A stretch of DNA of 64,000 nt from Escherichia phage ECO07P1. Location: sequence record OP172784; one strand, 5' to 3'. The position numbers and the translations under genes were made by a program. Shown in pieces: positions 23,587 to 33,268 of the stretch (positions are counted from its first letter, which is position 1; each line of letters begins with the position of its first letter). The notes under the pieces are model-generated. The model worked only from the letters and a program-made list of their open reading frames with translations, had not been told where the DNA came from and did no database searches.

Positions 23587-23599
23587 AATTAAGAATTAA

Positions 23600-23686
23600 G
23601 GGGAGTTATCCCGTAGAGGTAGCGGTGTGGACTGTAAATCCATTGTCATTGCGACTCGGGTGGTTCGACTCCATCACTCCCCACCA
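23600..23686 (+). tRNA. tRNA-Tyr (anticodon GUA)
   Basis: Acceptor ggggagt/actcccc, anticodon stem gtgga/tccat, loop ctGTAaa, long variable arm, CCA. Confidence 0.8.
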
Positions 23687-23690
23687 ATTT

Positions 23691-30424: not shown

Positions 30425-30455
30425 GTTTACGCTTAAGTATTAATATGGTATAATT
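30425..30455 (+). promoter_or_regulatory. early promoter for ipIII
   Basis: GTTTAC, 18 bp, tGGTATAAT. Confidence 0.6.
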
Positions 30456-31407: not shown

Positions 31408-31550
31408 CATGGGAACAACCTGGACCTCATGATTCTATGAGGGATTCCCGCCAACCTGTAATAAGGGTCGAGCCCAAGTGCGGTAATGGGTAAACACAGA
31501 AATGGACAATTCATGCGCCACGGAATGGCCCAACCTAAAAGAGAAACTAA

Positions 31551-32090
31551 ATGAGAACATTTTTAACTGGTCCTTATCTATCCCTGATGAATGCTTTTAC
31601 ACACCATTCTGATGCTAGAGTAGAAGAAATTTGTAAGAATGATTATGTCCCACCATTTGAAGACTTACTCAAACAGTATTGCACACTTCGACTAGATGGT
31701 GGACGTCAATCCGGTAAATCAACTGCAGTAACTAATTTTGCCGCTAATTGGTTGTATGATGGCGGAACAGTTATTGTTCTTTCTAATACTTCAGCTTACG
31801 CTAAAATTTCTGCAAATAACATTAAAAAGGAATTTTCGCGTTATTCTAATGATGATATACGTTTTCGTTTATTTACTGATTCTGTCCGTAGTTTTATCGG
31901 TAATAAAGGAAGCAAGTTCAGAGGTTTATCGCTTTCGCGGATTTTGTATATAATCGATGAGCCTGTTAAATCTCCTGATATGGATAAAATTTACGATATT
32001 CATATTGAAACTGTGCACCACTGTTGCAATAGTAAATGCTGCATTGGTGGTATTATTCGTCCACAGTTTTTCATAATCGGAATGCAATGA
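31551..32090 (+). CDS. P-loop NTPase-like protein
   Basis: 179 aa; Walker A-like GGRQSGKST and Walker B-like ILYIIDEP. Confidence 0.6.
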   Translation: MRTFLTGPYLSLMNAFTHHSDARVEEICKNDYVPPFEDLLKQYCTLRLDGGRQSGKSTAVTNFAANWLYDGGTVIVLSNTSAYAKISANNIKKEFSRYSNDDIRFRLFTDSVRSFIGNKGSKFRGLSLSRILYIIDEPVKSPDMDKIYDIHIETVHHCCNSKCCIGGIIRPQFFIIGMQ

Positions 32091-32269
32091 TGACAGACAC
32101 GCAACTTTTCGAATATCTTTATTTTTCGCCAAAAACTGTTAAAAATAAATTGGTGAATCATTTTGAAATTTTGGCAAATAACAACGTCTTGAGCGAATTT
32201 TATCCTAAGCAATACAAATTACAAAAAAGGCGTATTCAAAGGATGCAGAGTTTTGTGCACTGCTCCTAA
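32087..32269 (+). CDS. hypothetical small protein
   Basis: 60 aa from ATG overlapping upstream stop (ATGATGA); weak SD. Confidence 0.4.
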   Translation: MMTDTQLFEYLYFSPKTVKNKLVNHFEILANNNVLSEFYPKQYKLQKRRIQRMQSFVHCS

Positions 32270-32425
32270 TGCAAGATTAATGAATAAAATTCCATATTTT
32301 ACCATGGAATTTATTGATGGGCCTTTTAAAGGACTAATCACGCAGAGTTTAATGGCATATGATTCTGAGCCATTTTTAATTAAAGAACAATCTTGGATAA
32401 ATTTATTTTCTAATTGAGAGGTTAT

Positions 32426-32788
32426 ATGAAAGCATATCAAATTCTTGAAGGCACGCATAAAGGTACTATTTATTTTGAAGATGGTATTCAAGCACGAATT
32501 ATTGTCTCTAAAACTTTTAAAGAGGACTCTTTTGTAGACCCAGAAATTTTCTATGGTTTGCATGCCCGTGAAATTGAAATTGAAACACAACCTACAGTTA
32601 AAATTGAAGGTGGTCAACACCTGAACGTTAACGTTCTGCGTCGCGAAACTCTGGAAGATGCAGTTAAGCATCCGGAAAAATATCCGCAGCTAACCATCCG
32701 TGTATCCGGTTATGCAGTTCGCTTTAACTCTCTGACTCCGGAACAGCAGCGCGACGTTATCGCTCGTACCTTTACTGAGAGTCTGTAA
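32426..32788 (+). CDS. autonomous glycyl-radical cofactor (GrcA/YfiD-like; T4 Y06I-type)
   Basis: 120 aa; C-terminal about 59 aa ([60 protein letters not shown]) match remembered E. coli GrcA including the RVSGY glycyl-radical motif. Confidence 0.85.
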
Positions 32789-33009
32789 TGGCAAAGATAA
32801 TTATTGAAGGTTCTAAAGATGTGCTAAATGCTTTCGCCGAATGGTTTAGTAATTCAGGCGAACAGCAATTTAATGAAGCGTGGAATATGGGTGATATTGA
32901 TGGAATTTATCCTACGACAGAAATTTCTGTTCAAGGATATGGAATTCATGAGCCTATTCGTTTAGTTGAATATGATTTAGGTACTGGTGAGGAAGTAAAA
33001 TATGATTGA
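32788..33009 (+). CDS. hypothetical protein
   Basis: 73 aa; overlapping start/stop with neighbours. Confidence 0.55.
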   Translation: MAKIIIEGSKDVLNAFAEWFSNSGEQQFNEAWNMGDIDGIYPTTEISVQGYGIHEPIRLVEYDLGTGEEVKYD

Positions 33010-33268
33010 AGATATTAAGGGTTATAAGCCACATACTGAAGAGAAAATCGGTAAAGTGAATGCTATTAAAGACGCTGAAGTTCGTTTAGGACTTATCTTT
33101 GGTGCTTTATACGATGAATTCTGGGAAGCACTAGATAATTGTGAAGACTGTGAATTCGCGAAGAATTATGCTGAAAGCCTTGATCAGTTAACTATTGCTA
33201 AAACTAAACTCAAAGAAGCCAGTATGTGGGCTTGTCGTGCTGTGTTCCAACCAGAGGAAAAATACTAA
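33002..33268 (+). CDS. hypothetical small helical protein
   Basis: 88 aa; stop overlaps next start (TAATG). Confidence 0.55.

Follow-up and report, generated by a model that had tools for sequence, protein, structure and literature searches.

The radical site of pyruvate formate-lyase (PFL) is G734, and YfiD of Escherichia coli, also named GrcA, and Y06I of bacteriophage T4 are the only validated spare-part proteins (PMC8683613). With reference to Wagner et al. 2001, the same source reports both proteins to be activated by the PFL-activating enzyme and, in complex with PFL that has been cleaved by O2 at Gly734, to restore its activity in vitro. The gene for Y06I, vs.6, is among the open reading frames (ORFs) conserved in all the T4-like genomes compared by Nolan et al. 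2006 (PMC1524935), who proposed that it takes part in nucleotide metabolism. Gene, protein family and activity in vitro are all known already. Here we describe the vs.6 gene at positions 32426..32788 (+ strand) of a 64,000-nucleotide stretch of Escherichia phage ECO07P1 (sequence record OP172784), the whole of which is called the window in the following. This gene is very probably an old phage homolog of grcA, a spare part of the T4 type, the conserved 3' half of which has been overwritten by the host gene via homologous recombination, with at least two donors.

A comparable case is the psbA gene of T4-like cyanophages, for which Zeidner et al. 2005 and Sullivan et al. 2006 reportedly found a mosaic structure with intragenic exchange between host and phage. 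The likeness lies in a host-derived metabolic gene carried by a lytic T4-like phage, in segments that track the host and in a shift of composition inside the gene. The vs.6 case concerns another gene and other hosts, its tract is about 175 bp long with the same end points in three phage genera and, unlike psbA, this tract is 99-100% identical to a named host species. No description of the nucleotide-level mosaic of vs.6 or of its host-matching was found in a literature search that did not extend to the older T4 literature, where an earlier mention is possible; what it yielded were citations of Wagner et al. 2001 and the note of Nolan et al. 2006, which stays at the level of Pfam. The evolutionary footprint appears to be undescribed.

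Results

The 3' half of vs.6 is nearly identical to E. coli grcA

When the vs.6 gene was compared by blastn with 5426 complete E. coli genomes, only 32604-32788 was matched, with 98.4% identity (182/185), and the matched gene was grcA in 5426/5426 genomes; in K-12 it is located between ung and eamB. The first 178 bases of vs.6 found no blastn match in the same genomes. Specifically, 174/175 positions of the segment 32604..32778 (+ strand) are identical to E. coli K-12 grcA, and identity, breakpoint and tree position together mark this segment, which corresponds to grcA nt 200-374 and encodes residues 61-117 including the glycyl-radical loop, as a putative host-derived conversion tract. Its sole mismatch is A32692, a synonymous CTA for CTG at codon 32690-32692, and the remaining two mismatches of the match, G32779 and T32782, fall in the last 10 bases. 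At the protein level, residues 61-120 are 100% identical to residues 68-127 of E. coli GrcA (60 aa).

The switch in the alignment is abrupt, from ...GTTAAAA to TTGAAGGTGG..., and the reading frame is unbroken across the junction. At the other end, the alignment assigns both terminal mismatches to the last 10 nt of the gene (32779..32788, + strand; G AGT CTG TAA). Phage copies without a host-like tract end with GAGAGTCTATAA and host genes with GAAAGCCTGTAA, and the last ten bases of the window gene resemble the former ends, not the latter; the terminal mismatches being of phage type, the 3' junction therefore lies inside the last codons. In Escherichia phage EP01, the nearest relative among phages, the tract equals that of E. 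coli K-12 over 172/172 compared columns. No other part of the 64-kb window matches E. coli chromosomes by megablast.

A baseline for these values is provided by the Klebsiella phage Kp_GWPR59 (Pseudotevenvirus), whose C-terminal 60 residues are those of E. coli GrcA while its DNA is identical at only 144/172 positions (84%). Protein conservation alone gives about 84% DNA identity, and the identity of the window tract therefore exceeds what protein conservation gives. The tract differs at 1 site from K-12, at 4 from Escherichia sp. MOD1, at 16 from Citrobacter and at 31 from Salmonella; non-E. coli Enterobacterales grcA genes are 78-91% identical to it, and its median identity to 56 Enterobacterales and Pasteurellaceae grcA genes is 85.5%.

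The 5' half is of phage type

The segment 32426..32603 (+ strand; residues 1-59) appears, from composition, BLASTP and a neighbour-joining (NJ) tree, to be an AT-rich and diverged version of the GrcA N-terminal region. Its DNA is 38-45% identical to the 5' halves of host grcA genes. The N-terminal region aligned by BLASTP to GrcA 28-67 with 33% identity over 40 aa (E=6e-6, a single comparison), and the alignment to the NCBIfam GrcA equivalog model TIGR04365 covers residues 20-120; no NCBIfam model matched the N-terminal 60 aa alone. These similarities suggest that the 5' half is a GrcA N-terminal region that has diverged strongly, and not a sequence foreign to the family.

The G+C content (GC) of the whole window is 0.353. 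In 100-nt segments, GC is 0.25-0.34 before about 32550 and 0.46-0.48 across 32600-32800, with values of 0.33 for the 5' half and 0.49 for the 3' half. The GC of third codon positions (GC3) rises from 0.17 in the 5' half to 0.43 in the 3' half, against 0.44 in the same part of E. coli grcA. A max-chi2 analysis with a Pseudotevenvirus reference placed the breakpoint at gene positions 177-180, that is 32602-32605 of the window (permutation p<=0.0005), and across reference pairs the breakpoint fell at 177-186 with max-chi2 of 32-51, all p<=0.0005.

A preliminary description of this locus had proposed a mosaic gene with a phage-type 5' half, a 3' half acquired from the host, a composition shift near 32600 and a high BLASTN identity of the 3' part to enterobacterial grcA, and all of these are borne out by the data above: composition is not uniform along the gene, and the identity to E. 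coli grcA is higher than protein conservation or the other hosts would give. The C-terminal match to GrcA, including the RVSGY motif, is also as it stated, with the correction that it spans 60 residues instead of about 59; and its divergent N-terminal half is indeed divergent, yet related to GrcA.

The mosaic is shared by other phages and extends to a second donor

The mosaic is not private to the ECO07P1 window. The E. coli-like tract also occurs in T4 and in Mosigvirus ATK47, where it differs from K-12 at 2 sites in each case, and in about 640 Tequatro- and Mosigvirus records the 3' half is at least 95% identical to that of the window, with 5' halves going down to 87%. In a comparison of the window with ATK47, identity is 67-84% in the flanking genes, 87.6% in the 5' half of vs.6 and 98.3% in the tract, which argues for entry of the tract after the split of Tequatrovirus and Mosigvirus; the data are compatible either with a separate entry in each genus or with one entry followed by phage-to-phage passage. 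The 'recent acquisition' of the preliminary description is consequently right in relation to the split of the phage genera and wrong for this isolate, since T4 and about 640 records share the tract.

Klebsiella-infecting Jiaodaviruses (Mineola, KPV15 and Nispero) have the same phage-type 5' half as the window. Their tracts differ at 6-10/172 sites from K. pneumoniae grcA and at 21-23/172 from E. coli grcA; the tracts of K. aerogenes and K. pneumoniae grcA, one strain of each being compared, differ from each other at 11 sites. The breakpoint is again significant (p<=0.0005), and GC3 goes from 0.24 to 0.62, with 0.67 in the K. pneumoniae tract. A search of all phages with K. pneumoniae grcA yielded 77 records with 95-99% identity, and among the 40 matches listed 40/40 cover only host nt 199/202-374, with junctions as in the E. 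coli case. Taken together, the E. coli-like and Klebsiella-like tracts point to at least two conversions from different donors, E. coli and a K. pneumoniae-like host.

With regard to the sequences used, a scan of genome contigs for grcA gave 80 loci, none of them from K. pneumoniae, and K. pneumoniae grcA was taken from PLSDB chromosomes mislabelled as plasmids; CP125156.1, a PLSDB 'plasmid' of K. pneumoniae with a length of 5.37 Mb, is clearly a chromosome. The grcA gene of K. aerogenes NCTC10006 (LR134122.1) has an extra A that truncates the annotated coding sequence (CDS), and a contig labelled Vagococcus sp. WN89Y has an enterobacterial grcA, probably through contamination or mislabelling. 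The KPV15 copy of vs.6 (424-786 of its locus) has lost 1 nt from its 5' half, and its annotation consists of two short CDSs, so that its spare-part gene may be inactivated or the record may hold a sequencing error.

Copies of the same protein family are found in Slopek-, Pseudoteven-, Karam- and Krischviruses and in T5-like Epseptimaviruses, and in the full-gene alignment the Slopek-, Pseudoteven- and Karamvirus copies share the N-terminal type of vs.6. None of the sampled copies from these five groups has a host-like tract, their 3' halves being 69-85% identical to every sampled host gene. The Pseudoteven-, Slopek- and Karamvirus copies differ at 27-51/172 sites from each of the 16 aligned host genes (28-41 sites between the Slopek- and Karamvirus copies and E. 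coli grcA), and none of 56 host genes is more than 80% identical to the two Krischvirus copies or the T5-like copy. Compared with E. coli GrcA, the radical domain is identical in the Pseudotevenvirus, two residues off in the Slopekvirus and more diverged in the Karamvirus. All these alignments were built on 12-26 representative phage and host sequences, out of about 1500 matching phage records.

GrcA-like genes are widespread outside the T-even group: the 3' half finds matches in about 1500 phage records, many of them T5-like Epseptimaviruses of Salmonella. The sampled Krischviruses GEC-3S and JK32 and the T5-like Salmonella phage S124 have N-terminal regions of their own and no host-identical tract.

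Direction of transfer and probable signature of recombination

Simple NJ trees of 172-200 columns, without bootstrap support, were built for the two halves. In the tree of the 5' half, ten sampled T4-like (Straboviridae) copies form one clade apart from all hosts; in that of the tract, the Tequatro- and Mosigvirus sequences fall inside E. coli and the Jiaodavirus sequences beside K. pneumoniae. Host grcA genes group by host genus in both trees. Between E. coli and Salmonella, grcA is 84.5% identical in the 5' part and 82.6% in the tract, and E. coli grcA itself is not mosaic. The host-type GC3 of the tract, the non-mosaic E. coli gene and the nesting of the phage tracts in the host tree all point to transfer from host to phage. 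In addition, 4/5 of the phage-side changes read are from G/C to A/T (CTG to CTA, CCG to CCA and both bases of CGC to CAT), which would fit a drift toward phage composition after acquisition.

Both junctions coincide with the edges of a block of similarity between phage and host, at the start of the EGGQHLNVN coding sequence and in the last codons. Inside this block the alignments contain exact runs of 17-20 bp, and outside it, upstream as well as downstream, phage and host sequences are unrelated. The position of the junctions at the block edges argues for homologous recombination or gene conversion, of which this pattern would be the signature, over illegitimate capture.

T4 is able to recombine with homologous plasmid or host fragments via its own recombination system. 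We propose that T4-like phages long carried a complete grcA homolog, as the detectable GrcA similarity of the 5' half suggests, and that this would explain the diverged, AT-rich sequence of that half. Selection would hold the 60-residue radical domain nearly unchanged, leaving about 180 bp at about 84% DNA similarity to the host; gene conversion with host grcA DNA during infection would then have replaced the phage tract by the host allele. E. coli would be the donor in the Tequatrovirus and Mosigvirus lineages, and a K. pneumoniae-like donor would have acted separately in Jiaodavirus.

vs.6 encodes a phage subtype of GrcA

The window comes from a Tequatrovirus genome, and its strand is the reverse of the one used in the T4 map. 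ORF, T4 orthology and profile matches identify 32426..32788 (+ strand) as the vs.6 (Y06I) ortholog, a 120-aa phage autonomous glycyl-radical cofactor of the GrcA type. In the ORF list it comprises 120 codons, from the ATG at 32426 to the TAA at 32786-32788, as a small stand-alone ORF between the vs.7 stop and the vs.5 start, without a catalytic barrel. Its DNA is about 97.5% identical to T4 vs.6 (NP_049730) and 99.4% to that of EP01, and 730 phage records match it at the megablast level. The T4 protein (Y06I_BPT4) is also 120 aa long, and its gene has the same gene order around it, the same 5' junction and the same E. coli-like tract. Residue 73 is His (CAT) in T4 and Arg (CGC) in the window and in E. 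coli, the T4 gene ends with ...GAAAGTTTGTAA and that of the window with ...GAGAGTCTGTAA, and the CTA at 32690-32692 is a synonymous change private to the window. The preliminary description had named Y06I as a precedent for a phage spare-part protein; the spare-part assignment stands, and Y06I is more than a precedent, gene order and DNA identity making it the ortholog.

The phrog_1209 profile covers residues 1-120 with 211.6 bits (60.1 bits for the N-terminal 60 aa alone), and the Pfam Gly_radical domain PF01228 scores 67.2 bits against a cut-off of 22.2. Residues 22-120 align to PDB 6owr, the nuclear magnetic resonance structure of E. coli YfiD (E=4.6e-42), and residues 58-120 to PflB 697-759 (94 bits). 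The RVSGY motif occupies residues 92-96; on the evidence of the sequence and of the alignments to 6owr and PflB 697-759, the codon at 32708..32710 (+ strand) specifies Gly95, the predicted radical-bearing glycine, equivalent to GrcA Gly102 and PflB Gly734. The product of T4 vs.6 carries the RefSeq name 'autonomous glycyl radical cofactor GrcA', and the most fitting description of the window protein is a phage (Vs.6) subtype of GrcA.

Like E. coli GrcA/YfiD (P68066; 6OWR), with which it shares the C-terminal 60 residues, the Vs.6 protein is a small stand-alone protein. It differs in the N-terminal region, which is 33% identical to GrcA over 40 aa and 7 residues shorter, and in being expressed from a phage operon instead of the host's own regulated promoter. 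The C-terminal domain of PflB to which it aligns (697-759; PDB 1H16, 2PFL) is the part lost or damaged at the Gly734 cleavage; in contrast to PflB, the Vs.6 protein has neither the catalytic barrel nor Cys418/Cys419, and it constitutes a replacement piece only.

Local signals and gene neighbourhood

A Shine-Dalgarno sequence, GAGAGG, was read at 32416..32421 (+ strand), 4 nt 5' of the vs.6 ATG; it overlaps the vs.7 stop TGA (32415-32417), and the vs.6 TAA (32786-32788) overlaps the vs.5 start ATG (32788-32790). Immediately 5' of vs.6, a consensus scan gave no sigma-70-like promoter; strong promoter-like sites come closest at 30426 and 33550, and vs.6 is therefore apparently part of a polycistronic unit. 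Between 31000 and 34000, Rfam detected no RNA element at E<=1. At the junction, a minus-strand hairpin that resembles a terminator (32622-32608) was discarded, being at chance level and also present in E. coli grcA.

The ORFs of the window follow the T4 order vs.8, vs.7, vs.6, vs.5, vs.4, vs.3, regB, vs.1, and the position of vs.6 between vs.7 and vs.5, upstream of regB, is conserved with respect to T4 57000-66000 and to Mosigvirus ATK47. The identity between the window and ATK47 is patchy: about 54-63% in the middle of vs.7, up to 94% at the vs.7/vs.6 boundary (32361-32480) and down to 45-50% inside vs.4 (33078-33197). This pattern suggests additional phage-phage mosaicism around the locus.

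The vs.7 gene (32087-32417) has a +1 frameshift, with six A at 32223-32228 where T4 and EP01 have five. Its 109 codons are thereby divided between two ORFs, one with its end at 32269 and the other with its start at 32253. The extra A may reflect a sequencing error or a homopolymer prone to slippage, or vs.7 may be a pseudogene; a 2025 bioRxiv preprint describes hypermutable 'contingency loci' of this kind in T2 and T4.

In T4, denV (endonuclease V) lies between ipII and vs.8. In the window, 31407 is the last position of the ipII-like ORF and 31551 the first of the vs.8 ORF, and denV appears to be absent from 31408-31550. The 120-nt 5' extension of T4 vs.8 is present in this interval, but out of frame or altered; the interval is unusually GC-rich for the window (0.48), and EP01 is arranged as the window between ipII and vs.8. 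Elsewhere, one single further megablast match in the E. coli collection was obtained, for 23596-23689, which is about 80-90% identical to a tRNA-Tyr gene present on 259 E. coli plasmid records, possibly phage-plasmids; the match locates a phage tRNA gene at this position.

Discussion

The history favoured here, host-to-phage conversion of a long-resident gene, has to be weighed against other ways of arriving at the same sequence. The alternative with an appreciable, if minor, chance of being correct is that one T-even lineage was converted once and that the allele then spread among co-infecting Tequatro- and Mosigviruses by phage-phage recombination. T-even phages do exchange segments, the apparent 5' junction is common to both genera, and their tracts differ from K-12 at 0-2 sites; the patchy identity, with 94% at the vs.7/vs.6 boundary and a 5' half (87.6%) above the flanks (67-84%), would also agree with such exchange. 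However, the sampled tracts share no common derived substitution (CTA in the window, CAT in T4, CCA and ACC in ATK47), their 3' ends differ, being the full phage-type GAGAGTCTATAA in Mosigvirus and CTG/TTG TAA in Tequatrovirus, and identity falls abruptly to about 72% directly after the stop codon. Moreover, the Klebsiella-type tract of Jiaodavirus would be left unexplained. Far less probable is an old single capture without any recent transfer, in which the 3' half would have stayed host-like by purifying selection and convergent codon adaptation. The C-terminal 60 residues are strongly constrained, being identical to GrcA even in Kp_GWPR59, where synonymous sites differ throughout, but it is the synonymous sites that refute this explanation: phage copies whose protein is identical or nearly so differ from E. 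coli grcA at 28/172 positions and the window at 1, Enterobacteriaceae whose codon usage is similar show 15-31 differences, and two phage genera with flanking genes about 70% identical have tracts that are 98.3% identical.

Near-identity alone gives no direction, and in principle E. coli and K. pneumoniae might have received the 3' half of grcA from T4-like phages. This reverse route is highly improbable: the composition of the tract is host-like and not phage-like, host grcA genes are equally diverged in both halves and group by host genus in both trees, and in 5426/5426 E. coli genomes it is grcA that holds the tract. An artefact of assembly or contamination, in which host reads would have been joined to a phage contig, has nothing in its favour beyond the unusual identity to host DNA and a negligible probability, since the junction recurs in the T4 reference genome and in over 640 phage genomes that were sequenced independently, a number which excludes it; the continuous frame over the junction and the phage-type last codons speak against it as well. 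A further alternative concerns function and not origin: the Vs.6 protein might serve mainly as a decoy for the PFL-activating enzyme PflA, or act for the phage anaerobic ribonucleotide reductase, directly or via formate as reductant, rather than in PFL repair. T4-like phages encode a formate-using glycyl-radical ribonucleotide reductase. A role in nucleotide metabolism has been suggested (PMC1524935), and the literature searched holds no in vivo phenotype. We nevertheless consider a role other than repair improbable, the radical domain being of PFL/GrcA type (100% identical to GrcA, 94 bits to PflB 697-759) and rescue of cleaved PFL by T4 Y06I in vitro being reported (PMC8683613); a supply of formate through PFL is compatible with the repair role and not opposed to it.

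Several observations weigh against conversion by host grcA and a spare-part role as proposed here. The protein scores 154.6 bits with TIGR04365 (IPR011140), under the curated cut-off of 170, because its N-terminus has diverged. The Jiaodavirus tract is 94-97% identical to the single K. pneumoniae strain compared, so that another Klebsiella lineage may have been the donor, or the event may have taken place earlier. The phage search gave no match of at least 95% to Salmonella enterica or Enterobacter sichuanensis grcA, and the sampled E. coli-infecting Krischviruses have no host-like tract; conversion is therefore episodic and not general. Recombination itself is read from patterns in the sequence, and no in vivo phenotype of vs.6 was found in the literature searched, the benefit to the phage being likewise deduced.

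As to function, the identity of the radical domain to that of GrcA and the orthology with T4 Vs.6 make PFL spare-part activity the best-supported prediction for the window protein. The protein would be made from phage transcripts after infection, host PflA would put the radical on Gly95, and the radical-bearing protein would dock on PFL cleaved by oxygen at Gly734 and restore its activity, so that production of acetyl-CoA and formate is kept going in a microaerobic host. During infection, this may keep host fermentation and the formate supply running after host gene expression has been shut off.

The radical domains of E. coli and Klebsiella GrcA are two residues apart (LEDAVKH versus LLDAVEH), and the converted phages follow their host. 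It is tempting, though still speculative, to see in vs.6 a natural recorder of host-to-phage conversion, with a radical domain repeatedly overwritten by the grcA allele of the current host and favoured by selection for its fit to host PflA and PflB.

T4-type phages destroy host DNA, and vs.6 nonetheless contains a tract that is 99-100% identical to a present-day host gene. The tract is a sequence-readable marker for the frequency with which lytic phages recombine with host chromosomes in nature, and it allows a test of whether phage metabolic 'spare parts' need to match the host. It could also hint at the recent host of an uncultured T4-like phage.

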